From: Candidatus Latescibacterota bacterium
GTDB taxonomy: Bacteria > Latescibacterota > UBA2968
DNA: 27,640 bases
Assembly: GCA_964200925.1 (NCBI GenBank)
Contig: CAXNEV010000001.1
Location: 1-27,640 of the forward strand
Direction of reading: 5' to 3'
Below are positions 2,871 through 20,136 of the stretch, one piece after another. A model generated the notes under the pieces. The model did not search any database and had not been told where the DNA came from. It saw only the letters and a list, made by a program, of their open reading frames with translations. Made by a program: the position numbers and the translations under genes. The first letter of the stretch is position 1, and each line of letters opens with the position of its first letter.

Positions 2871-3205
2871 ATGCCTTCGGCGACCTACTTTTGCTGGCGC
2901 GAACCGTGTCACACACAACCCCCTCCCTCCCGGTTTGTAACGACACAAAAGTAGGCAAAAAGTCGTTCCCTCAAATGCCGGGAGGGCTGATTTGACTCGC
3001 GGCTGCGCCGCTCATGCGAAACAAGGGGCACTTCGTGCCCAATCACCCGCTTCGCGGGTCTTGTTTGGTCCGCATCCCCACAGAATGCTCGACATGAAAT
3101 AGCCTGCCAGCGATAAAGGCGTTTCAAAAGGTGTTGCGAAACGGAATGGCGCGGAAAATCGGCAGATGGTCTTTTTAAATGGGGTTTTGAGTGTTGAACC
3201 TGTTG
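2871..3205. repeat. Modular dispersed intergenic repeat, copy A (longest, with two extra cassettes)
   Basis: Shares ATGCCTTCGGCGACC, GGCAAAAAG, GGAGG(G)CTGATTT and CGCGGAAAAT blocks with 18695-18980 and 19902-20136. The right boundary is approximate. Confidence 0.9.
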
Positions 3206-3232
3206 AGGTACGATACAACCTTTCGCGGTCGT

Positions 3233-5206
3233 TTACTGTTCGGTTTTGATGAAGATTTGTTCGTGTGTGAGCGGTCGTCCCCAAGCGCCATGGGATTCGG
3301 CAAATGACACATCGTTGGGAATATTTCCGAGGCGTTTGTTCGCCCCCCAAACGCGATAGGCCGCACCCAGCGGAATAGCAGGAATGTTGTTGGTGAACAA
3401 ATCGCGAGCCCTTGTCATACAGATGCGCACTTCGGCTGTGTCGGTGGTGGTGGCTGCCTGATCAAACAGACGGGTGCATTCTTTTAACCAGTCTGGGCCT
3501 TCTGTGCTGGCATTGCGGTGCCAGTAGGGCATATTGGGGCCGCTGATGACCCATTCTTCGCGGTTGCTCAACGGATCGTCGGCACTGTCGAACCACCAGT
3601 GGTGAACGTCAAATTCACCGCTGTATCGGCGAGGTACAATGATGTCGCGCAGTGCGGCAAAGGTGTTGACTTTGATGCCCACTGCCTGCCAATGGGCGGT
3701 GGCCAGTTCGGTGACATCGCCTTTGCCACTGGAACTGGTGGCAATGTCGATGGTGAATTCAAACCGCGAGCCATCGTGAAATTCGCGATACCCATCGCCA
3801 TTGGTGTCGCGATATCCTGCCTGGTCGAGCAATTTTTTGGCTTGATCGGGATCATAGTCGCTAAAGCGTTTAAAGGCTGTTTCATTGTAATAGGGATTGG
3901 GTGGATAAAAGGAATATCCAGCCGATACGAGAAAACCGTGGTAGAGCAACTGGCTGATTTCTTCGCGGTTGAGCGCTAAAGACAGGGCGATGCGCACATC
4001 GCGGTTGCGAAAGGCTTTGCGCAATTCTGGATTTGGCGCATCCCAATTGAGGTAAAAAACATGGGCTGGCACGGGGCCAGAGAGGTACACGCGAAATGTT
4101 CCGGTTGTCATTTCAGACTGTTTGAGGGTTTCAAACATGTCGATCTGGGAATAGCGCCCAAAAAGATCGAGTTCTCGGTTGATAAATTTGAGAAGGATGA
4201 CCTGGGTGTCGGGAATGATTTGAAACACGAGTCGGTCTGCATAGGGCAGTTGATTGCCTGCGGTGTCGATTTTCCAGTAGTAGGGGTTGCGTGTGTAAAC
4301 GATGCGCTGACCGTGAATCCACGATGCGGGTATCCAGGCCGATAAAGAGGGCATGCCGGGTGTGTAATAAAATTGGGCGCGGGTGGCTTTTTGCCGAAAT
4401 GTTTCATAAGAGGCTTTGGGATTGTATTTGGGATGCCAGTTTTCGAAAATGTGTTTGGGATAGGCGGCATCGTCCACACCGGCCAGGGTGTTGAGCAATT
4501 GACCCAGGGGTTTATCGGCAGACATGCAAATGGTGTAATCGTCAATTTTTTCCACGATGATGGGTTTGCCATTGACGGTGAAAGCTGGTGGAATGCCCGA
4601 GCGGTCTATGGGGCGGGCATCGTCATTGAAGAGCAGGTCGTTGTAAAAAAAGAGCACATCATCGGCGGTGAAAGGGTGGCCGTTGGACCAGCGGATGCCT
4701 TTGCGCAAGTGAAGAAAAAGTTTGGTTCCGCCCTTCTGGAAGGCCCAGCTTTCGGCCAGATTGGGTTCGAGAGAATCGCCCAGGGGGTGCGCAAAGGTGA
4801 GCAGGCCTTCGTTTTTGGCCTTCATCGTGGCGGGAATTTGCACGATGTCGCCGGTGAGCGCGCGGCGCAGTTCCCCACCGTAGGTGCCAATTTGTTCAAA
4901 GGGAACAATGACACGCGGGTTTTCGGGCAGGCGTTTGGAAATGGGTGGCAGGTTTCCTACTTGAACATCTGCTGTCCAGAGTGGGGATTCGTGAAAGGTG
5001 CGTTTGGCGAGAATTTCGGGATCAAGGGACAATGGAGCGCGGGTTTGTTGTAAGGTTGACGGTGTGGAGGTTGTGTGCGGGGTGTTGGATGTGTGTTGTT
5101 GTGGGTCGGGGGCAATGCAGCCAAAAAATAACAACATCATCAGTATGAGAAGGTTTTTGGGTGTGCGATCATTTTTGGATTTGTCAAGATGGGATTGAAA
5201 AGTCAC
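3233..5206 (-). CDS. ABC transporter family-5 (OppA/DppA-like) substrate-binding lipoprotein
   Basis: Lipobox-like LFFGC; motifs PNLAESW, LRKGIRWSNGHPFTADDVLF and RNPYYWKID..GNQLPYAD. GTG start is uncertain. No cognate permease adjacent. Confidence 0.9.
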   Translation of the reverse strand: MTFQSHLDKSKNDRTPKNLLILMMLLFFGCIAPDPQQHTSNTPHTTSTPSTLQQTRAPLSLDPEILAKRTFHESPLWTADVQVGNLPPISKRLPENPRVIVPFEQIGTYGGELRRALTGDIVQIPATMKAKNEGLLTFAHPLGDSLEPNLAESWAFQKGGTKLFLHLRKGIRWSNGHPFTADDVLFFYNDLLFNDDARPIDRSGIPPAFTVNGKPIIVEKIDDYTICMSADKPLGQLLNTLAGVDDAAYPKHIFENWHPKYNPKASYETFRQKATRAQFYYTPGMPSLSAWIPASWIHGQRIVYTRNPYYWKIDTAGNQLPYADRLVFQIIPDTQVILLKFINRELDLFGRYSQIDMFETLKQSEMTTGTFRVYLSGPVPAHVFYLNWDAPNPELRKAFRNRDVRIALSLALNREEISQLLYHGFLVSAGYSFYPPNPYYNETAFKRFSDYDPDQAKKLLDQAGYRDTNGDGYREFHDGSRFEFTIDIATSSSGKGDVTELATAHWQAVGIKVNTFAALRDIIVPRRYSGEFDVHHWWFDSADDPLSNREEWVISGPNMPYWHRNASTEGPDWLKECTRLFDQAATTTDTAEVRICMTRARDLFTNNIPAIPLGAAYRVWGANKRLGNIPNDVSFAESHGAWGRPLTHEQIFIKTEQ

Positions 5207-5216
5207 AGAAAAACGG

Positions 5217-5256
5217 CCCTCACCCTCAGTCCCGCTCCCGCATGCAGGAGCGGGAA
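5217..5256. repeat. REP-like palindrome of the CCCTCACCC type
   Basis: CCCTCACCCTCAG leader followed by the 9-bp stem TCCCGCTCC (5230-5238) / GGAGCGGGA (5247-5255); intergenic. Single copy in the window; family assignment is from recall. Confidence 0.55.
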
Positions 5257-5482
5257 GGTGTTGGTGGTATTGTTGTGTGGTTGGTTTTTTTGGTCAGGGT
5301 GAAACGGGGTGCTTTTGTGATCGTCTAATCAGGTGTATTGCATGATCCAATACCTCTACAAACGATGCCCACTGCGCCACCGAACAGGTGCAGATACGTA
5401 CTGGATACAATTGATGGCTGTGTGGGACAATATAAAAGGATGGTAGGAGCTTGGTAGTACGAAATGTGAGGAGGCTGTTGAA

Positions 5483-5986
5483 ATGGGTAAAAAAAACCGG
5501 TTGCTGATGGTTTGTTTGGGTATGATGACTTTGGGTTTGTGCGCGGTTTTTGGTGTCAGCTGGGCGGATGACGATGATCACGGCAGAAAACGGCGTGGAC
5601 ATGAGGATCATGAAAAAGCAGAACGCGGTAAAAACAAACACAAGGCAAAATTGATTACTGCAACAGATGCAACATTTGTTCAGACCTGTGGTGCCTGTCA
5701 TATGCCCTATGCGCCGGGTTTGTTGCCTTTGGCTTCGTGGAAAAATATTTTGAGTCACCAAGAGAATCATTTTGGTGAAGAACTGGGTATTGATCCAAAC
5801 GATCTTGCAAAAATTACTCTTTATTTGGAACAAAATGCTGCGGATAAACGAAATACAGAACTTTCAAAAAAGATTATGCGCAGTACGGGAGGACAGATGC
5901 CCGTGCGGATTACAGAGGTTCCGTACATTAAGGCCAAACACAAAAAGCGAAAGTTGGTGCCAGATTGCACGTCCTGTCATAAGTAG
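5483..5986 (+). CDS. Dihaem cytochrome c (DHC family)
   Basis: AGGAGG RBS, signal peptide, His/Asp-rich linker, two CXXCH motifs (CGACH, CTSCH), and HMPYAPGLLP, HFG and RITE motifs. Confidence 0.85.
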   Translation: MGKKNRLLMVCLGMMTLGLCAVFGVSWADDDDHGRKRRGHEDHEKAERGKNKHKAKLITATDATFVQTCGACHMPYAPGLLPLASWKNILSHQENHFGEELGIDPNDLAKITLYLEQNAADKRNTELSKKIMRSTGGQMPVRITEVPYIKAKHKKRKLVPDCTSCHK

Positions 5987-6036
5987 TTGGAATAACTTTT
6001 AAGGATGGGTTGGGTTTTAAAGCAGGGTTCATGAAT

Positions 6037-6074
6037 CAAACTGCCCGGTCAACATAATTTGATCGGGCAGTTTG
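6037..6074. terminator. Hairpin between convergent genes, probable bidirectional terminator
   Basis: 11-bp perfect stem CAAACTGCCCG / CGGGCAGTTTG between the cytochrome stop (5986) and the peptidase stop (6092). Confidence 0.7.
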
Positions 6075-6091
6075 TGTTGTGCTGATTTTTT

Positions 6092-7402
6092 TCAGGCGGT
6101 TTTGCATTCGAATGTTTTGATTAAAGACTGGATGGTTTCGAGCATTGTGCACGTGTTTTCGGCCATGTAGTCGGTGAGCATTTTTTGGGCATGGGCCTCG
6201 TTTCCGGCGTTAATGAGCTGGCGGCCATCGGAGGCGATTTGATAGGCAGTTTTGAAAAGTTGATTCTGAATGGTTTGCCACTGGGTGCGCATCTGAGGCA
6301 CGCGATCTTCGGGGTGTGATCGCACCAACTGGTTGAGTCTGTGAAACTGCCACCAGGGGCTTTTGCTGCTGAAAGTGGCATCACCCACGTTGAGGATGGT
6401 TGGAAGTTGGCCTTCGATGAAGGTGGGAAGAAACAGGGCAAGGCAGGGGGAATAAAAACCACACCAGTACACAGGCAGACATGAGCCATTGGCACACAGG
6501 TCGGCAACGAGGCTGGCTGCGGTGTTGCCACCGGTGCCATCCTGGTTGCAGTGGACACAAATGCCACCCTGTTTGAGGTCGGTTTGAAATGTTTGCGGGG
6601 GTGATTGGGCATTGCCGTGATCTGAGAGAAGGGCCATCATGGTGTGCACATCGATCTGGCCTTTTTGATGAGACAACACGGCACAGGATCGGGCGCGGCG
6701 CGTGGCCCCGCTGCCTTCGGTTCGGCTGGATTCTGTGAAGGCAGCGGCAAAATTGAACCGACCTGTGGGAGACGTTTTGCCCAGTTCAATGGCTTTTTGT
6801 TGGGCGCAGGACGACAGGCGTATCCAGTCGGTTTCGATTGAATAGACATTGCTGATGCCCAATGTGCTTTCCACTTTTTTGACGGCCCAGTCGTGACCAG
6901 CCGTTTCAATGACATAGGCTTCGTGTGGATCGGCCACGATGTAGCTGTTGTCATAGGTGCGCACATTTGAGGTATTTTCAAATTTGCCTTGGCCAAATTG
7001 CAATATGAGGTCGGTTATGACGGCAACGGCTTCCGAGGCGGTGCGACCGCGTTCCAGGCCGAGGCGCAATAGTTCCATGCCGATGAGTTTGGGCGTTTTG
7101 GAAACGGGCAAATGAGAATGTACGGCTTCGTTGCCAATGACAACCTGGTGTTCGTTGAATCCGTGTTCGTAGCCCCAGCACCAGAAGGGGCGTGATCCGA
7201 TGTGGCGATAGGTTTTTTGAACTTCAGGTATGGTGATGAACTGGCAATATGTTTGGGTATTTTGCGGATGTGTTTTTCGATCGCGGAGGATGAGTGGCTG
7301 GCATTCATCGGCCGGGCGGTCGCTGTTTTTGGCAAAAATGGTTTGGCCATTCAATGTGGCATTGCCGAGTGCAACCATTGTGTCACAACTTTGGGGTTTC
7401 AT
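6092..7402 (-). CDS. Peptidase C69 / secernin-like Ntn-hydrolase
   Basis: N-terminal SCDT (nucleophile Cys), AKNSDRP, WGYEHGFNEHQVVIGNEA and YIVADPHEAYVIETAG. ATG at 7402 with upstream AGGA is preferred over TTG at 7408. Confidence 0.9.
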   Translation of the reverse strand: MKPQSCDTMVALGNATLNGQTIFAKNSDRPADECQPLILRDRKTHPQNTQTYCQFITIPEVQKTYRHIGSRPFWCWGYEHGFNEHQVVIGNEAVHSHLPVSKTPKLIGMELLRLGLERGRTASEAVAVITDLILQFGQGKFENTSNVRTYDNSYIVADPHEAYVIETAGHDWAVKKVESTLGISNVYSIETDWIRLSSCAQQKAIELGKTSPTGRFNFAAAFTESSRTEGSGATRRARSCAVLSHQKGQIDVHTMMALLSDHGNAQSPPQTFQTDLKQGGICVHCNQDGTGGNTAASLVADLCANGSCLPVYWCGFYSPCLALFLPTFIEGQLPTILNVGDATFSSKSPWWQFHRLNQLVRSHPEDRVPQMRTQWQTIQNQLFKTAYQIASDGRQLINAGNEAHAQKMLTDYMAENTCTMLETIQSLIKTFECKTA

Positions 7403-7418
7403 TTGCAATATCCTGATT

Positions 7419-9620
7419 TTATGATTTTTCCTCTGTCTGAGGAACAGTTTTCATTGGAATGCGCACACAAAACTTCGCGCCCTTTTTTTCTTCACTTTCC
7501 ACATCTATCATCCCTCCATAAGCATTCAACAATTGTCGGGCCATATACAACCCTAACCCGGTGCCCTGGGGTCTGTCATTGTCTCCTGTTTTGGTGGTAT
7601 AAAAAGGGTCGAACAATTTTTCCAGATGGGCTTTTGGAATTCCACACCCCGTATCGAGAATTTCGACCAGAATCCCCTCGCCTGTCAGGTGAGTTGTCAC
7701 AACTGTTAGAATTTTTTCATTTTGATCGTACATGGCCTCAATGGCATTGCGCAACAAAATGCCAAATATTTGGGCAAAGTCCGAGTAAACCCCGGAAACA
7801 ATGGGCAAGTGCAGATCCAGATGAATCTCTGTTTTAACTTCTTTTTGAAAAAAGGGATCGGAATACAAAAAATCTAATTCCTGTTTGAGCAGGTGGTTCA
7901 AATCGACTCTGTCCGGTGTTTTTTTTTGTCGGTTTTTTGCCAAAATATTTTCGATCATAACATGCATATTTTCTGACGCAGACACAATGCGATCCACTTC
8001 GCTCAAATGGGGATGTTTCATTTTTAACATTTCGGCATAACCCAGTATGCTCGTCAACGGGTTTTTCAAATTGTGCACAATGCCTGCCGCCACAGTTCCC
8101 ATTGCGGCCATGCGCTCCGATTGCACCAGTTGGCGTTCCAACTGCCGCCGCGCCGAATCGGCCTGTTTGCGTTCGCGAATGTCGCGCACAGCCACCACGC
8201 CCACTGTTTTTCCAGCATAGGGCACTGACCGACCAATGACTTCAATGGGAAATTCTTCGCCTTTTTTGGGACAAATGGTTGCCTCAAAGGGCTGCTCGTT
8301 GTTGTCACGAATGTGGGTGATGGCCATCAAACGCGCCTGACGCCCCACAAAGCGCCAGCAGTTTTTTCCAATGAGTTCCGATCCTTTTGAGAACCCCAGC
8401 ATGCGTGCAAATTGGTCATTGGCATCTAAAATGACACCGCCCTGGTGAATAAAAATGCCCTCAAATGCCGATTCTGAAAGCATCCGAAATCGCGCTTCAC
8501 TTTCTCGCAATGCCGCTTCAGCAGCCAAACGATTTGTGATATTTCTGGCGGCACAGACCATGCCCAGCGTTTCACCAGCCGGATTTTGCAACATCGCTCC
8601 CGACAGCAACACTGGAATTTCCCGTTTGGTTTTGGTCAGTAGCCGTTTTTCCACGTTTCGAATAGTACCGTGTTGAAGCAGTTGCGCCACCATGGTACCG
8701 TCGAAAAATCCGTCCTGATCAGAAGCAAAAAGCATCTGGGCAGGTTGTTCAAGCAGTTCGGATTCCGCATAACCCAATAAATTGCACAATTCGATATTAA
8801 CTGTTTCAATGTACCCTTTAGGGGTCATCACAAACAGGGCATCATTCATCGACCTGAGAATGTTTTCTGTATAGTCGCGTGTTGCAATCAACGCCGTTTG
8901 AGACAGTTTCAGGTGATTGGTCATCTGATTGAATGCTTCTGATAACGTATGCAATTCATCAGAGGTATGCACCTCGATTTGCCGATCCAGATCGCCCATA
9001 GAAACAGCTTGGGTGGCTTCGGTTAACACCTTTAACGGACGCGTCACATGCCCGACAAAAAAGACGGTTAATATTGTTCCAAAAACAATGAACCCCGCGC
9101 CAAAGCCAAAATTCCAGTACTCAATTTCTGTGATTTCTGTTTGTATTTTGGCCAGGGAAAACCCCACTCGTACCCCTCCCAGCTTTTTTTGATTCACATC
9201 AATGGCTTTTGCCACATCTAAAATATGATGCGTCATTTGCACCATCACCGAATCAACCGCTACCGCGCGCAAACTCACCGGGTCGTTTAAAGGTTGTTTT
9301 CGCGATGGATTTTCATGGCCATCTGTTAAAATATATCCCGCATGGTCAAACACATACACATAAGAAACTTCATCCTGAGAAAGCACATTGGTGAGCAACG
9401 GCATCAGATTGTGATTGTTTGTTTCACCCATGGCATCCGAAACACCCGCGGCCAACAAAGATGTGATGGACAGGGCTTTGTTTAACAACCGCTGTTGGAT
9501 GACGGTTTCTTGCGATTGAATGTTGTGCAGCGTAATCAAAACTGTAAAAACAATTAAAAGCAGCACAATAAAAGAAATGAATTTGGCTTTTAAACGAAAT
9601 GCAATCGGTGCAAAATTCAA
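7419..9620 (-). CDS. Membrane sensor histidine kinase (2 TM, HAMP, 2 PAS, HisKA, HATPase_c)
   Basis: HAMP motif DELHTLSEAFNQM, two PAS repeats, H-box AAGIVHNLKNPL, N-box RNAIEAM, DTGCGI, FDPFYTTK and GTGLGL. TTG start. Confidence 0.92.
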   Translation of the reverse strand: MNFAPIAFRLKAKFISFIVLLLIVFTVLITLHNIQSQETVIQQRLLNKALSITSLLAAGVSDAMGETNNHNLMPLLTNVLSQDEVSYVYVFDHAGYILTDGHENPSRKQPLNDPVSLRAVAVDSVMVQMTHHILDVAKAIDVNQKKLGGVRVGFSLAKIQTEITEIEYWNFGFGAGFIVFGTILTVFFVGHVTRPLKVLTEATQAVSMGDLDRQIEVHTSDELHTLSEAFNQMTNHLKLSQTALIATRDYTENILRSMNDALFVMTPKGYIETVNIELCNLLGYAESELLEQPAQMLFASDQDGFFDGTMVAQLLQHGTIRNVEKRLLTKTKREIPVLLSGAMLQNPAGETLGMVCAARNITNRLAAEAALRESEARFRMLSESAFEGIFIHQGGVILDANDQFARMLGFSKGSELIGKNCWRFVGRQARLMAITHIRDNNEQPFEATICPKKGEEFPIEVIGRSVPYAGKTVGVVAVRDIRERKQADSARRQLERQLVQSERMAAMGTVAAGIVHNLKNPLTSILGYAEMLKMKHPHLSEVDRIVSASENMHVMIENILAKNRQKKTPDRVDLNHLLKQELDFLYSDPFFQKEVKTEIHLDLHLPIVSGVYSDFAQIFGILLRNAIEAMYDQNEKILTVVTTHLTGEGILVEILDTGCGIPKAHLEKLFDPFYTTKTGDNDRPQGTGLGLYMARQLLNAYGGMIDVESEEKKGAKFCVRIPMKTVPQTEEKS

Positions 9621-9632
9621 GAGAGCCTCGGT

Positions 9633-11489
9633 TTAAGATGGTTCTGTAACCTTTTGGGGTGGCTTGATGGGTATGCGCACATTAAATGTCGTGCCGACAT
9701 TTAATGTGCTGTCAATGGAAATGGTGGCACCATGGGCATCCAGCAAACGCTTGCTCATATACAATCCCAACCCTGTGCCTTTTGGGCCTTCTGCGCTTGT
9801 TTTGGTTGTGAAAAAAGGCTGAAACAAATTTTTCAAATTGGCAGGATCTATGCCGCAGCCCGAATCGCCGATTTCGACAATTACATGGTCTTTGTCCTGG
9901 GCTGTTGACAGGCGCAAATTTTTGGTGGGTCGATCTGTCATGGCCTCGATTGCATTGCGCAAAAAATTGCCAAAAACCTGAGAAAAATCTGTATAAACGC
10001 CATGAATAGACGGCATGTGTTCGCCCAAATCAACCTGTTTATTCACATCGCGTTTAAAGATGCGATCGGCCATTAAAAATTCCAATTCGCGTTCGAGCAA
10101 GCGATTGATATCCACATCCTCAGTGGTGCGCTTGTGTCGGCTTTTTGCCAAAATATTTTCGATCATAGTATTCATCAAATTGCCCGATGACAAAATGCGA
10201 TCCACTTCGCCCAGGTCGGGATGTTTCATTTTTAACAATTCGGCAAAACCCAGTATGCCCGTTAACGGATTTCTCAAATTGTGCACGATGCCAGCCGCCA
10301 CGGTTCCCACGGCGGCCATGCGCTCAGACTGAATCAATTGCAATTCCATTTGGCGCCGCGTTTCTTCGGCATTTAAGCGTTCGCGCATATCTTTGGCAGT
10401 AATAATAAACCCGCTCAATCGCTGTTCGCGATCTCGTGGTATGGACACGCTTAAAAGCACGGGAATGGGTTGTCGATCTTTTGCGATCAGATGGCCTTCA
10501 AAATCGCGTCGCATCTCGCCAGCAGTACCATCCATCATGCCAACCAGTGAGAGACCTTCAAACAGGTGGCCTGCGGGTTTGTTGAGCAGTTCTTGTTCGC
10601 CATATCCCAACAACGTGAATGTGCTTCGATTGACCATGCGAATGCGACCATCTAATGAGGTGACAATCAGCACATCCATCATATTGTTCAAAATGCCATC
10701 CAAAAAATCTTTCGACACAGATGTTTCGGCTAAAGTTTGACTCATCCGGTTAAAACTGGCAGCCAGGTCGCCCATTTCGTTGTTGGATAAAACCGGCACT
10801 GTTTTTCCCAAATCTCCCTGGCGCACCTGCTCTGTGGCTTTGGCCAACAGGTGAATGGGTTTTAAAATTTGCCTGTTAAAAAGCAATGCCATGACAATAA
10901 AAAGCACACAGCCCAGCGCAATGACCAGCGTGACCTGTTTGGATATGCGGCTGGCTGTTGCACGGGATTCTAACATTAAAATGCCCAATCGCAACGTGCC
11001 CAGGCGCGTGCGGTTGCCCGAAGAGGCACCCCCCATCAACAAAAAGGTTTCGTCCGAATCGGAGGCCGTATCCCATACCGGAAGCGCCACATCCAGTACA
11101 GGGCCATCCGATGTTTGGATTTGGCGATACACGGGTGCATCTGAATACACACTTTCAAGGGTTAACGGATCGTCATACAGTTTGCCGTGTTCTGCCACAT
11201 TGGTGTGGGCAATCACACGCCCGGCACCATCCTGGGCCAAGGAATAAACCCCTTGCCCATTAGAAACCAGGGTTTGAATTAAGGGCAACAACTGGCTTTC
11301 GTCTCGCGCACGCAGACCGGGAAGGAATGCAGGTTTTTGCACGGTAGCGGAAACAGCATCAAGCCCGCGTTTGACCACTTCTTGCTCAATAACCCCCAGT
11401 ACAACTTGCTGGCTCAGCAGGCTCATGCCCACGGCAAACAACATGGCCAGAGGCACAAAAAACAACAGCAATTTGGTTTGCATTCTCAT
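9633..11489 (-). CDS. Membrane sensor histidine kinase (2 TM, HAMP, PAS, HisKA, HATPase_c)
   Basis: HAMP motif NEMGDLAASFNRM, one PAS, H-box AAGIVHNLRNPL, RNAIEAM, DSGCGI, FQPFFTTK and GTGLGL. Confidence 0.92.
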   Translation of the reverse strand: MRMQTKLLLFFVPLAMLFAVGMSLLSQQVVLGVIEQEVVKRGLDAVSATVQKPAFLPGLRARDESQLLPLIQTLVSNGQGVYSLAQDGAGRVIAHTNVAEHGKLYDDPLTLESVYSDAPVYRQIQTSDGPVLDVALPVWDTASDSDETFLLMGGASSGNRTRLGTLRLGILMLESRATASRISKQVTLVIALGCVLFIVMALLFNRQILKPIHLLAKATEQVRQGDLGKTVPVLSNNEMGDLAASFNRMSQTLAETSVSKDFLDGILNNMMDVLIVTSLDGRIRMVNRSTFTLLGYGEQELLNKPAGHLFEGLSLVGMMDGTAGEMRRDFEGHLIAKDRQPIPVLLSVSIPRDREQRLSGFIITAKDMRERLNAEETRRQMELQLIQSERMAAVGTVAAGIVHNLRNPLTGILGFAELLKMKHPDLGEVDRILSSGNLMNTMIENILAKSRHKRTTEDVDINRLLERELEFLMADRIFKRDVNKQVDLGEHMPSIHGVYTDFSQVFGNFLRNAIEAMTDRPTKNLRLSTAQDKDHVIVEIGDSGCGIDPANLKNLFQPFFTTKTSAEGPKGTGLGLYMSKRLLDAHGATISIDSTLNVGTTFNVRIPIKPPQKVTEPS

Positions 11490-11503
11490 AAAAACAATCT
11501 GCC

Positions 11504-13465
11504 TTAAAATTCATACGCCAAAAAACCCGTCAAACGACGACGCATCACTTCACCCCCCAATCCTGGCTCAAGCTTATTTCGGGCGGGTAATGTTTCAAAA
11601 TGTGTGTGATTGGTCATGTTAAACGCTTGAAAACCAACCGACAAGCCTTCCATGACCCCAGAAAAAGTATATCGAACGCCCATATTGAGTTGCCAGTAAT
11701 CCCCAATGGATGTGTATTGTGCATCCAGATTAACCGTACTGGCGTCACTCCAGGCTGTTTGCCCCACCCAGTGGCCCCACAAGGTGGCAGATATTCCGCC
11801 CTGTTGCATGCGCACGCCCCCATTGAATTTGTGAACGGGGCCGCCATTTTTGGCCACTTGAAATTCAAATTCGCCGCGAATGTGCTGGTGCGAATGATTG
11901 GCAAACAAAACCCACCCGGGCACGACTTCAATTTCTGTGCCCAATTCGCCTCCCCAGGCTTCTACTTCCTCAACACTGTTTTTATACTCTGCCTGTGCCC
12001 GCAAGTTGGGCAGGGCCTCTGGCACAAACAAAAACTGCCCCACACCAATCATATGTCGCAACCGATAGTGAAATCCAACAAGCGTGGTGCGCACCGGGCC
12101 AAAACGCCCGGTATGCGCCAGTTCTATTTGCCGCACGCGTTCGGGTTTTAAATTGGAACTGCCAACCACAGATAGCGTGACAGGCACATTAAAAGAGGTT
12201 TGAATAATTTGTTCTTGTATCACATAACGCTCTGTCAGCGTGGGATTGCGAAATGCCGAACCTGCGGCCAGGCGAAAGACGTGTTTGGCATTGGGAGAAA
12301 AAATCAAACTTGTTCGCGGAGAAAAAACCCATCCTGTTTGAGAATGTTGATCCCATCGACCACTGCTTACCACCGTCCAACTGGATACAGGTTGCCAGAC
12401 ATGTTCGGCAAACAGGGCATATTGTGTTTGTTGTACCTCGCCGGGTTTGTAAACATTGGACTGCACATCGTCTTGTCGGGCACTGCCGCCTATTACCAAA
12501 TTGTGGTGCGCCGATATAGACACGGTTTGTTCCAATGAAACCTCGCGAGAATTGAGTTTCACTTCGGGCACAATGGCCGTTTCCAGATCGAGAATGGCGG
12601 GTTGCTCCCGGTTCCAGTAAACCCGAACATGGGTATTGCGCCGATTTAAATCTGCTCGCAAATATCCCGTGGTGCCATCGTAGAAAGCCTGTGAAACACC
12701 CACGGCAAATTGGGTTTGATAGTCACTTAGCCCGCCTGATAAACGCAGCCTTGTGTTGCCGGGCAGTTCGGTGTCTATCAGACCGTGAAATTTTCGCACA
12801 TGTGATGCGCGCTGTCCGGCATTTTCAAATTGATGGGTTGTGCGATATTCGGCTCCTACGAGATAACGAATGTGCGCCTGGCGTTGTCCATAGGCCAGAT
12901 CAAACAAATGGGTTTGTCGTTCACCGGCGGCATATCGCACGGTTCCGCCATTTAATTGTTCGGGTGTTTTGGTAATGATATTAATGACCCCGTTGAGTGC
13001 ATTGGCCCCATAAAGAGCAGACGCTGGGCCCAGTACCACTTCAATGCGATCAATGGTGTTCCACACCACCGGTATGCCTTCCCAAAAGGTAGAATCAAAA
13101 GGGCCGTTTAATGCCGGTTTGCCATCAAGCAATACCAGTGTGCGGTTATTGAGGGACTTGTTTAATCCGCGAATGCTCACCTCGCCATAAAATGTGCGTG
13201 TGGACATCACATCAACTCCTGGCACCAATCGCAGGGCATCCCACAGGGTTTGCACACCCATTTGCGCCAGATCTTCGCTAGAAATGACATAGATCGTTGC
13301 TGGGGCCTGGCGAACCGACAGGGGCAATCGCGAAGCCGTGATTGTGCGAATGGCTTCGGCTTCAATGGCAAAAAAATCAAAAATATCGGTTTCTTCGCCC
13401 AATGCTGGAATGACCAGGACCATTATCCAGCACAGAGTAACCAACCCTCTTAATCCAAGCCTCAT
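11504..13465 (-). CDS. TonB-dependent outer-membrane receptor
   Basis: Signal peptide; plug motifs DALRLVPGVDV, LVLLDG and IDRIEVVLGPASALYGANALNGVINIITK; C-terminal aromatic pattern ending LAYEF. Confidence 0.93.
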   Translation of the reverse strand: MRLGLRGLVTLCWIMVLVIPALGEETDIFDFFAIEAEAIRTITASRLPLSVRQAPATIYVISSEDLAQMGVQTLWDALRLVPGVDVMSTRTFYGEVSIRGLNKSLNNRTLVLLDGKPALNGPFDSTFWEGIPVVWNTIDRIEVVLGPASALYGANALNGVINIITKTPEQLNGGTVRYAAGERQTHLFDLAYGQRQAHIRYLVGAEYRTTHQFENAGQRASHVRKFHGLIDTELPGNTRLRLSGGLSDYQTQFAVGVSQAFYDGTTGYLRADLNRRNTHVRVYWNREQPAILDLETAIVPEVKLNSREVSLEQTVSISAHHNLVIGGSARQDDVQSNVYKPGEVQQTQYALFAEHVWQPVSSWTVVSSGRWDQHSQTGWVFSPRTSLIFSPNAKHVFRLAAGSAFRNPTLTERYVIQEQIIQTSFNVPVTLSVVGSSNLKPERVRQIELAHTGRFGPVRTTLVGFHYRLRHMIGVGQFLFVPEALPNLRAQAEYKNSVEEVEAWGGELGTEIEVVPGWVLFANHSHQHIRGEFEFQVAKNGGPVHKFNGGVRMQQGGISATLWGHWVGQTAWSDASTVNLDAQYTSIGDYWQLNMGVRYTFSGVMEGLSVGFQAFNMTNHTHFETLPARNKLEPGLGGEVMRRRLTGFLAYEF

Positions 13466-14352
13466 TGTAATTCTCCTCCACTGCGTTCAAGAGCTGGTCG
13501 ATCAATGATCATTCCTGCATCGGTCGCAGCAGACAAACTCACGCGAAAAATCACTTTTTCAGGATATACAACCGCAGCTACCTTTTCTCCCGATAATACG
13601 CGTTTAACAACCAGCCCTGCAGTTCGACCAATTTCTTCAAAACCACAGGCCACCGATGCCACAGCCCCTTTATCAACCAGCCCGCCGCTTGGCACATATA
13701 AAGGCACATCGTTGGATCGCGAAAAGGTTCGAAACAATTCGAAACTTTGTGCATTAATCAACACGGGATCGGGGGGCAACCACACTCCATTGATGTGGCT
13801 GTGCAACATCTGACGCAACCCTTCGGGTAAATCGTCAAGGCTGTGCACATGTTCGGCAACAATTACAATGCCCCATTGCTGAGCGGCCTGCTTGAGTGCA
13901 TTGACATACAACAACTGGGCATCGGATGCCCAAAATATGCCCAATCGGGTTAAATTAGGTTGCAACAGTTTTAACCGAGAAATGACATCTGTTGCAGGAG
14001 GCAACATGGTGACTTTTATCGCTTCGCCTCGTTTTTCGCGCTCATCCAAATTCACACCGGGTGCCAGGCAATAAACCACCAGCGTTCCTGCCGGGTAGGA
14101 AGACAATGCGGCTTTGCCACCAAAAGCCACCACCACCCGTGTGACAGTGGGTGCATGTGAAGCCTCATCGCTCAAATTGATTCGGCGAATTGGCGCACCA
14201 TAAGCTGTCTGAAAAGCCTCAAAAGCCTTTTCATAGGGTTCGATGCTGGCACTTAATATGGCTGTCACTTCCTGGCCAGCGCATGGCACAGAGCTAAGTG
14301 CACATGCAAACAGGGCAACAGCCTTAAAAAGCCGATTTAAAAGAAGGATCAT
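13462..14352 (-). CDS. Periplasmic ABC_sub_bind-type (type I PBP) ligand-binding protein
   Basis: Signal peptide; motifs LQPNLTRLGI, GVWLPPDP, LVDKGAVASVACGFEEIGRTAG and SLSAATDAG; ATGA overlap with the receptor start. Confidence 0.8.
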   Translation of the reverse strand: MILLLNRLFKAVALFACALSSVPCAGQEVTAILSASIEPYEKAFEAFQTAYGAPIRRINLSDEASHAPTVTRVVVAFGGKAALSSYPAGTLVVYCLAPGVNLDEREKRGEAIKVTMLPPATDVISRLKLLQPNLTRLGIFWASDAQLLYVNALKQAAQQWGIVIVAEHVHSLDDLPEGLRQMLHSHINGVWLPPDPVLINAQSFELFRTFSRSNDVPLYVPSGGLVDKGAVASVACGFEEIGRTAGLVVKRVLSGEKVAAVVYPEKVIFRVSLSAATDAGMIIDRPALERSGGELQ

Positions 14353-14403
14353 CTGGATAGCGATTAAAAGCGAATGGGTTTTGTGATGATTGTTCGCTCT
14401 AAA

Positions 14404-14520
14404 ATCCCGCGCTACGCGCGGGGATCCAAAGGCTCACGGAAAACGTCGATGCTCCGCATCCTTTCCGTTCGACCTTCGGCCGAGACATAAAGCCACCAGC
14501 TTTCGCAGGTGGTCGTTTAG
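14404..14520 (-). mobile_element. Four-hairpin element; probable non-autonomous IS200/IS605-type end/MITE, or a structured RNA
   Basis: Minus-strand hairpins CCACC-T-GC(GAAA)GC-T-GGTGG, TCGGCC(GAA)GGTCGA, ACGGAAA..GATGC(GGA)GCATC..TTTCCGT and CCCGCGC(GTA)GCGCGGG. The end CTAAACGACCAC..GTGGCTT resembles IS200/605-type termini from recall. Confidence 0.5.
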
Positions 14521-14780
14521 TGCCCAATAAATCTACAAAAAAGTTGGAAGAATCCGTTACATAATTGGTGTGCCGTCAAATTTTTTTAGAATGAGCAAAA
14601 ATGAAACCACGGCTTTTTTTGAAAAATAAAATTTTCTCAAAAGCATTAATCATTTGTGCCACAAAAAATTACAAACAATTATAAGAATGGATATCAAAAT
14701 CCCCATAGTGCCACAAAAGGCGCAAATTCGCCAGTGCCAAAAAAGAAAAGGCCGCACTTCAGACATGCGGCTTAGAGAAT

Positions 14781-14844: not shown

Positions 14845-14923
14845 TTGGGACTCGTCCAAAAAATAGACGAATGGGCGAATTGCAGATTTGTCATAAACCG
14901 GAAAGTTATTTCTGGATGAACCC

Positions 14924-18694: not shown

Positions 18695-18980
18695 ATGCCT
18701 TCGGCGACCAGTGGGTGTCATAAATGACACCCCTACAGATCGGCTTACAGATTGGTGAATCAATTGTAGAGACACCATTTATGGTGTCGTTGGCAAAAAG
18801 GCCGCCCTTCAAGTGCCAGGGAGGCTGATTTTCCGCGAATATCTCCACGGGATGCTCATAAGCAGATGGCCTGTCAACGATGGCGGTGTTTTGCAATGTG
18901 TAGCGAAACGGAATGGCGCGGAAAATTTTCCTGTATCGCATGTTTTGGGCATTGAAAGTGTTTATACCCTGTAAAGATGA
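18695..18980. repeat. Modular dispersed intergenic repeat, copy B (carries a REP doublet)
   Basis: Same conserved blocks as copies A and C; lies between the ABC ATPase and permease genes. Confidence 0.88.
18713..18788. repeat. Inverted pair of GTAG-tagged REP palindromes (REPIN/BIME-like)
   Basis: Minus strand GTAGGGGTGTCATTTATGACACCC (18736-18713) and plus strand GTAGAGACACCATTTATGGTGTC (18766-18788), separated by 29 nt. Confidence 0.75.
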
Positions 18981-19684: not shown

Positions 19685-19901
19685 GTGTGTCCTGGTTTTG
19701 CGTATGAATCAGCAATTATCCGCATGTGTTTTGAACCGCATACAAAGTAATGAAAACGCACCAAAAAACAAGGTGATGCACCTTGAAAATGCTTGCCGCC
19801 TGATGCTTGCACACCTAAATTGCGGCAACTCGTTATTCAATATGGGCTGACAAAGCTCCCTGAAGTCCCCTTTAAAAACGTATCTTTTATCACATTTTTG
19901 T

Positions 19902-20136
19902 ATGCCTTCGGCGACCTACTTTTGTAACGACACAAAAGTAGGCAAAAAGTCGTTCCCTCAAACGCCGGGAGGGCTGATTTTCCGCGAATATCCCCATAGG
20001 ATGCATTCGATAAGATGGCCTATCAAGCTCAGAAGTGTTTCAAAGTATGTTGCGATGGGAATCGCGCGGAAAATCCGTTCCTGTATCGCGTGTTTATTGA
20101 CGGTGAGCATTGCAGGTGTGTATATCCTGTAATGAT
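19902..20136. repeat. Modular dispersed intergenic repeat, copy C (shortest)
   Basis: ATGCCTTCGGCGA-CCTACTTTTG(taacgaca)CAAAAGTAGG-CAAAAAGTCGTTCCCTCAAA; nearly identical to copy A over this block once A's insertion is removed. Confidence 0.9.

Follow-up and report, generated by a model that had tools for sequence, protein, structure and literature searches.

GNA hairpins and repeat families in the window

The window analysed here is a 27,640-nt stretch of DNA from a Candidatus Latescibacterota bacterium (assembly GCA_964200925.1, contig CAXNEV010000001.1, positions 1 to 27,640 of the forward strand). The genome (G000) is a 3.55-Mb draft that is 82% complete and is divided into 480 contigs. 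The window carries short hairpins with a three-nucleotide G-N-A loop closed by a C:G pair, denoted C(GNA)G, which belong to several families of longer, dispersed repeats. An initial annotation had drawn attention to these hairpins and proposed that the elements carrying them are selected to fold as single-stranded DNA (ssDNA).

Every hairpin cited in that annotation was found in the window sequence, with its GNA loop on the minus strand: GCGGC(GCA)GCCGC at 2999–3011, GGGCAC(GAA)GTGCCC at 3026–3040, ACCCGC(GAA)GCGGGT at 3045–3059, CCCGCGC(GTA)GCGCGGG at 14406–14422, GATGC(GGA)GCATC at 14448–14460, TCGGCC(GAA)GGTCGA, which includes one G.T pair, at 14469–14483, and GCGAAAGC at 14499–14506. Sequence comparison also confirmed that GCC(GAA)GGC terminates all three window copies of a longer repeat, here called the scaffold, at 2873–2881, 18697–18705 and 19904–19912 on the minus strand. 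When perfect triloop hairpins with a stem of at least 5 bp were counted (a GNA loop reads TNC on the opposite strand), the window contained seven C(GNA)G hairpins, all on the minus strand, compared with a mean of 0.75 (sd 0.82, maximum 4) in 200 dinucleotide-preserving shuffles. Two of the seven fall within genes and are probably chance occurrences.

The hairpins had also been described as lying always on the same strand, across unrelated elements. More than one repeat family is indeed present (three), but one of them (2994–3068) is nested within another. Similarly, the window hairpins are all on the minus strand, but they make up just four to six independent units, giving p ≈ 0.03–0.125 before post hoc selection is considered. 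Genome-wide, adjacent independent units shared a strand in 14 cases and differed in 5 (11:5 without the window), which is not significant. Within a single element, neighbouring hairpins (within 80 nt of each other) were on the same strand in 59 cases and on opposite strands in none. We infer that the common strand of the hairpins across this window is a coincidence.

The repeat families were delimited by BLAST and nhmmer searches against the whole G000 assembly, which contains 69 loci of the scaffold (R190), 53 of a cloverleaf element (F2), 12 of F5, eight of F3 and five of F4. The families are modular, with multi-hairpin cassettes of 75–120 nt nesting in the ≈190-nt scaffold and in each other. 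The scaffold has a 5' domain with an 11-bp closing helix and a 3' domain that terminates in ...GTAGGTCGCCGAAGGCAT. The terminal GCC(GAA)GGC is no more than a putative hairpin, because it has only three pairs, is invariant and could instead be assigned to long-range helices. All three scaffold copies in the window are on the minus strand. Sequence comparison placed the canonical copy 3, of 190 nt, at 19899–20088, and copy 1 at 2871–3162; the latter ends in ...GTAGGTCGCCGAAGGCAT and hosts both F4 and a second insert of ≈44 nt (2893–2934). Copy 2 (18695–18938), between the genes for an ABC ATPase and a permease, carries the ≈95-nt alternative cassette F5.

F4 is a three-hairpin cassette of 75 nt (2994–3068, minus strand), delimited by alignment with canonical scaffold copies. 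Its closing stem, CCAAACAAG/CTTGTTTSG, surrounds ACCCGC(GAA)GCGGGT and GGGCAC(GAA)GTGCCC, and is followed by GCGGC(GCA)GCCGC-GAGTC. In five of five copies it is inserted between CGCGGA and AAATC in the 3' strand of the scaffold helix P1. The inserts are 95–99% identical, and the left flanks of their hosts 58–81%; cassettes occupy one precise site of differing host copies.

The four-hairpin element F3 (≈120 nt, eight loci) was placed at 14400–14519 on the minus strand by alignment of its copies. Here, GATGC(GGA)GCATC sits inside ACGGAAA/TTTTCCGT, and the hairpin at 14493–14512 reads CCACC..GC(GAAA)GC..GGTGG. Compensatory stem changes are found between copies (AAAGC/GCTTT versus GATGC/GCATC, C-G to T-A), and in the alignment the GNA loops are retained with differing N. 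An insert of ≈72 nt with the same polarity was observed inside an F3 copy elsewhere in G000 (C244:4881-5071 and the C102/C117 flanks). It is rich in GCC(GAA)GGC, CTGCC(GAA)GGCAG and CCC(GAA)GGG units and may represent another cassette family.

The cloverleaf F2 has three GNA-loop hairpins of 5 bp enclosed by the closing stem CAGCGGG/CCCGCTG, and after these comes a fourth hairpin, which contains GCGNAGC; GCGAATC repeats lie on the flanks of the 53 F2 copies. Within the window, F2 is represented only by an empty, cassette-free short scaffold at 14862–14923 on the minus strand (GGGTTCATCCAGAAATAA...GCGAATC...GCCCATTCGTCTATT), which elsewhere is the host of the F2 cassette, there flanked by CTGCGAATC repeats.

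A run of minus-strand genes at 6092–14352 encodes an ABC-type binding protein, a TonB-dependent receptor, two paralogous sCache-HAMP-PAS histidine kinases and a C69-like peptidase. Each kinase gene includes one copy of a 203-nt stretch (7981–8183 and 10189–10391) that is repeated with 81% identity.

The loop rule and its conservation

In the intergenic DNA of G000, the GNA/TNC class accounts for 120 of the 239 C:G-closed triloop hairpins with stems of at least 5 bp, compared with 80 of 888 in genes and an expected 12.5%. The closing pair is also biased: intergenic GNA loops are closed by C:G rather than G:C in a ratio of 120:12, compared with 358:256 for other loops in intergenic DNA and 80:84 for GNA loops within genes. 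The 120 intergenic C(GNA)G loops comprise 69 GAA, 40 GCA, 6 GTA and 5 GGA, and 94 of these hairpins have a recurrent stem-loop sequence. In the two best-aligned loops of the cloverleaf, the counts are GAA 35, GCA 34, GTA 1, AAA 4, ACA 1 and TCA 1, so that, of the 76 loops, 70 retain G1 and all retain A3, and A and C are about equally frequent at N; all four GAA/GCA combinations are present among the loop pairs. The heptamer GCGNAGC is retained with N = A, C or T across three genera. GNRA and UNCG tetraloops are not prominent among the intergenic hairpins of G000.

These observations support selection of the loops for the form G-N-A under a closing C:G pair, with all loops of an element on a single strand. 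Only GNA loops form DNA mini-hairpins, and d(GCGNAGC) melts at 70–76 °C, compared with 39 °C for r(GCGAAAGC) (PMC13037366); d(GCA) loops are ≈3 kcal/mol more stable under a C:G closing pair (PMC3201870). As read from the sequences, the loops follow the rule known for DNA mini-hairpins, not that of the GNRA or UNCG loops usual for stable RNA hairpins, and for this reason the folded form is most likely ssDNA. The claim of selection for ssDNA folding is thus supported in part: a strand-specific fold that obeys the DNA mini-hairpin rule fits the data, and ssDNA is plausibly what adopts it. Indirect evidence for DNA over RNA comes from an orientation that is independent of transcription, from the hairpins not being terminators and from the far lower stability of the RNA form (PMC13037366).

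The scaffold was found in most sampled genera of the family and order, with up to ≈300 candidates per genome. In genus g4, helix P1 is wholly changed yet compensated (GATTTTCCGCG/CGCGGAAAATC versus GCACAGCGC/GCGCTGTGC). Between genera, hypervariable segments alternate with the fixed blocks CGCAAC, GACAGGC and GCATCC (window 19899–20088; L010–L013 of G003), and the scaffold includes two interleaved helices, pseudoknot-like or alternative, ACGAC/GTCGT and CCTACTTTTGT/ACAAAAGTAGG. The 16-mer GTAGGTCGCCGAAGGC, allowing up to one mismatch, has 227, 44 and 81 matches in the complete g4 genomes G003, G014 and G022, respectively, and its reversed control has none. It is nearly invariant in these genomes while the rest of the scaffold diverges, a pattern that resembles that of a site recognised or cleaved by a protein. 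The distribution of the families is lineage-limited, the cloverleaf being confined to this genus, genus g6 and one g4 genome.

Stems are retained through compensatory changes, and from one genus to another elements have appeared, disappeared or changed orientation. The spacer between the ATPase and permease genes is 330 nt long here, where it contains scaffold copy 2, and 44 nt long in the genus g6 ortholog, which has no repeat. Genus g6 has a scaffold copy at the site orthologous to that of copy 3, upstream of the ABC transporter operon, and this copy is oriented the other way relative to the gene. For the F3 and F4 loci, synteny with another genus was broken, or the sequences had diverged too far for a presence/absence comparison.

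Orientation relative to genes and replication

The orientation of the hairpin clusters does not follow transcription: 25 are on the same strand as the upstream gene and 29 on the opposite strand, and the corresponding numbers for the downstream gene are 27 and 30. The cloverleaf is co-oriented with its upstream gene at 16 loci and opposed to it at 31. Scaffold copies are found in each of the four possible gene contexts (24 same/same, 14 opposite/opposite, 11 convergent and 6 divergent), which, together with the inverted copy at the orthologous site, ruled out a riboswitch or leader. Intrinsic terminators were likewise ruled out: of the 120 GNA hairpins, just 9 are followed by a T tail when read along the GNA strand, and 9 when read along the other strand; among 154 terminator-like hairpins located after genes, the C(GNA)G type accounts for only 4; and scans of two window regions for terminator-like sites gave no excess over shuffles. 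A classical terminator-like hairpin, GCCGCATGTCTGAAGTGCGGC followed by CTTTTCTTTT, was observed at 14751–14771 on the minus strand, downstream of a CrtC-like gene, which puts the four-hairpin element past the probable end of the transcript.

A search of the window and of representatives of all families against Rfam, using gathering and E-value thresholds, yielded no family at threshold. Below threshold, Acido-Lenti-1 (RF01687) matched the plus strand with 23.4 bits (gathering threshold 37, E = 0.19). This match needs the inserted cassette, and the canonical scaffold and other copies do not give it. One snoRNA match was set aside as due to chance.

Replication strand in G000 was taken from the local GC skew (G-rich versus C-rich strand). 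The skew of the contigs is strongly bimodal, with peaks near ±0.12. Along the G-rich strand, which carries 61% of the coding bases, it is +0.16 in co-oriented and +0.09 in opposed genes; the skew thus belongs to the strand itself rather than to gene direction alone. By this measure, the GNA strand is the G-rich rather than the C-rich strand in 30:27 hairpin clusters, 30:21 cloverleaf copies and 21:39 scaffold copies (nominal p = 0.03). In two complete relatives, with the origin set at dnaA, the scaffold motif is leading- versus lagging-strand sequence in ratios of 35:46 and 16:28, and the best two-block replichore split was not above permutation (p = 0.74 and 0.47).

Within the window, the sign of the GC skew switches at 7400–8000; values lie between +0.15 and +0.27 to the left of this interval and between –0.02 and –0.16 to its right, so the minus strand is C-rich at 3.0 kb and G-rich at 14.4–20 kb. 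The switch is located between the C69-peptidase gene and the first of the two paralogous PAS histidine kinase genes and has a terminus-like polarity. Similar switches occur in 8 of 56 long contigs, and the one in the window therefore need not be a terminus; the pattern suggests that skew flips in long contigs reflect inversions or chimeric joins at repeats.

The initial annotation had suggested that the shared polarity could come from lagging-strand insertion, and had named a genome-wide count of strand bias as the check. That suggestion fails: the clusters and the cloverleaf show no such bias, the scaffold is weakly reversed, and the window hairpins straddle the skew switch. The only bias seen, that of the scaffold, is weak and opposite to IS608-type insertion into the lagging-strand template. 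Insertion thus appears to be oriented nearly at random with respect to both genes and the replication fork.

Origin of the elements and comparison with known systems

The hairpins had also been linked to HUH/Y1 transposases, including those associated with repetitive extragenic palindromes (REPs), the REP-associated tyrosine transposases (RAYTs). No RAYT was found in the 82%-complete G000. Its sole Y1_Tnp gene is an IS200-type tnpA, followed by tnpB, in an IS200/IS605 insertion sequence (IS) with a left-end hairpin CCGACC(GTAA)GGTCGG and a right-end hairpin CCCCGTCC(ATGA)GGGCGGGG. This element (C58:1834-3479, L003) is intact and single-copy, with tnpA and tnpB of 149 and 431 aa. A BLAST search of the element and its flanks against G000 matched only itself, and the different hairpins, with GTAA and ATGA loops, exclude its ends as the source of the repeats. 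The complete genomes G014 and G022 have no Y1_Tnp, despite 44 and 81 matches to the scaffold motif. Across 40 relatives, Y1 genes and the scaffold are unrelated in occurrence, and G001 has 75 Y1_Tnp matches and no scaffold. Many of these 75 matches in G001 (same family, complete, 8.4 Mb) are identical, which points to a large IS200/IS605 expansion. The proposed HUH/RAYT link is thus not borne out. Two other candidate engines, a reverse transcriptase (RVT_1) and an IS110 transposase, were not found in the 82%-complete assembly. Paired scaffold copies enclose ordinary genes (amtB-glnK, ECF sigma/anti-sigma, MFS, GGT, sulfatase and EVE), so the idea of a master element carrying its gene between them was also rejected. 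Aligned copies have no GTAG or CGTC tag at the hairpin flanks; the GTAG in the scaffold end belongs to a helix strand.

The best explanation, to which we assign a probability of about 0.5, is that these are selfish, non-coding, modular intergenic repeats that fold as ssDNA, similar to REPs and bacterial interspersed mosaic elements (BIMEs) or to miniature inverted-repeat transposable elements (MITEs). The hairpins are the building blocks of several families of such small elements, which are spread through the intergenic DNA of G000 and of related genomes. One defined strand of each element would have to fold when single-stranded, and the folded ssDNA would be recognised during copying or insertion by an enzyme other than a Y1/HUH transposase in the relatives searched. 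The elements are set apart from true REPs because the tests for a tag, a RAYT and inverted pairs were negative.

Several observations weigh against this explanation. No mobilising enzyme was found for the families, nor any target-site duplication or master copy. Many repeat copies share descent, so the counts overstate the number of independent events. The loop frequencies are out of step with the DNA stability order A>G>C>T. The conservation of G1, A3 and the C:G closure is symmetric between the strands, and the GNA strand is therefore named from physical chemistry. Wobble pairs do not single out the GNA strand either, with 8 G.T to 3 A.C in single-mismatch hairpins and 32 to 25 in the cloverleaf; in scaffold helices predicted on both strands, the ratio of 5 to 27 leans to the opposite strand. 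These counts are contradictory, and wobbles were discarded as a pointer to the folding strand. Finally, the scaffold is co-oriented with the upstream gene in 40 of 63 cases (23 opposite), and F3 at seven of eight loci, which makes transcript-level roles possible for some families.

This co-orientation is among the evidence for regarding the repeats as transcribed RNA elements, with hairpins that act as 3' stabilisers, processing sites, attenuators or small RNAs and with a GNA triloop resembling GNRA. The complete, compensated rewriting of scaffold P1 between genera and the interleaved alternative helices are typical of structured RNAs, and the weak plus-strand match to Acido-Lenti-1 points the same way. 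However, the clusters have no orientation preference, the cloverleaf is more often antisense, and in another genus one orthologous scaffold copy faces the opposite way with respect to the gene concerned. Most terminator-like hairpins lack GNA loops, T tails are scarce, no Rfam family reached threshold, and GNA/GNNA mini-hairpins are far weaker as RNA than as DNA (PMC13037366). We consider it rather unlikely on balance that the repeats are RNA elements. The model of the initial annotation, in which REP/BIME or IS200/IS605-derived miniature elements are moved as ssDNA by a Y1 HUH enzyme (RAYT or TnpA) on the lagging-strand template, would account for extragenic, GC-rich, high-copy hairpins in mosaics and for cassettes with hairpins near both ends, on one strand and with no obvious target duplication; moreover, the assembly does have one Y1_Tnp gene and is just 82% complete. 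It is nevertheless very improbable, given the unmatched ends of the resident tnpA-tnpB element, the occurrence of the scaffold without Y1_Tnp in G014 and G022 and of Y1 without the scaffold in G001, the lack of a GTAG or CGTC tag on the hairpins and of a lagging-template bias, and the direct arrangement of adjacent hairpins (59:0), which are never inverted as in REP doublets (REPINs) or BIMEs (PMC2817692, PMC3337134).

Alternatively, the hairpins could be double-stranded palindromes bound by proteins, or could descend from one ancestral hairpin that fixed both loops and polarity, with no selection on a single strand. The many recent duplicates, reflected in the 94 of 120 hairpins with a recurring stem-loop, agree with this, as does the equal use of G.T and A.C as wobble intermediates in the cassettes. 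Against it, stems are unrelated across and within families, yet G1, A3 and the C:G closure are kept while N and the stem pairs vary. Furthermore, the 10:1 preference for C:G over G:C is specific to intergenic GNA loops, and descent alone predicts no such bias. This alternative is improbable.

Extending the favoured explanation of selfish ssDNA-folding repeats, one might speculate that the Latescibacterota harbour a superfamily of nesting d(C-GNA-G) miniature elements, copied as ssDNA by a non-Y1/HUH class of enzyme that would be new to such repeats, with GTAGGTCGCCGAAGGC as its recognition or cleavage site; we regard this as a tentative proposal that is more apt to be wrong than right. Small hairpin repeats fill bacterial intergenic DNA, and to our knowledge REP-RAYT is the only pair with a known engine. 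In the uncultured and little-studied phylum considered here, at least four families obey a clear rule of GNA loop, C:G closure and a single strand for each element, without an accompanying Y1 transposase. If the rule reports ssDNA folding, elements with an ssDNA stage could be flagged across whole genomes by a simple criterion, which would also offer a handle for finding their enzyme. Repeats of this kind are probably also a cause of assembly fragmentation in such genomes (480 contigs here).

Our literature search found no description of such GNA mini-hairpin repeats in bacteria, and the elements share features with several known systems. Acido-Lenti-1 (RF01687; PMC2864571) consists of a pair of hairpins with a CUxAUUU linker between them and a C:G-closed UUC triloop in the second, and resembles the plus strand at 2968–3012, but the score is below the gathering threshold and canonical scaffold copies do not match. 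Like the REP/BIME/REPIN-RAYT systems, the families consist of short, GC-rich, extragenic, high-copy hairpins in mosaic units that are intergenic and lineage-specific (PMC2817692, PMC3116915, PMC3733652). Published REP loops are mostly TY or CMA, and CGTC REPs correlate poorly with transposase genes in some groups (same sources). The present elements differ in having GNA loops, direct hairpin neighbours, no GTAG/CGTC tag and no RAYT found, and in forming cassettes with three- and four-way junctions nested in a 190-nt scaffold. With IS200/IS605 they have in common strand-specific subterminal hairpins and, for F4, one defined insertion sequence without evident duplication; they differ in that the ends of the resident copy are unrelated, there is no lagging-template bias, and they occur in complete genomes without Y1. 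IS200/IS605 transposition and its miniature derivatives are reportedly the subject of Ton-Hoang et al. 2010 (Cell 142:398).

Rickettsia palindromic elements, yeast mitochondrial GC clusters and double-hairpin elements are selfish, GC-rich hairpin elements. They resemble the present families as small mobile modules with covarying stems and nesting, and differ in their hosts and in that the elements described here are strictly intergenic as far as tested. The closest structural counterparts are the DNA mini-hairpins d(GCGNAGC) and d(GCGNNAGC) of Hirao and colleagues (PMC13037366, PMC3201870), which share the G-N-A loop with any N and the C:G closure; the heptamer GCGNAGC itself is retained here with varying N, and GCGAAAGC is present too. 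Natural DNA mini-hairpins work in ssDNA, in the phage G4 origin, RSF1010 ssiA and the N4 promoters (PMC13037366, PMC3201870). There is no indication of a priming, origin or promoter role for the hairpins described here, and their loop frequencies depart from the measured stability order. Unlike the known mini-hairpins, they have stems of 5–9 bp and are parts of dispersed repeats present in tens of copies.

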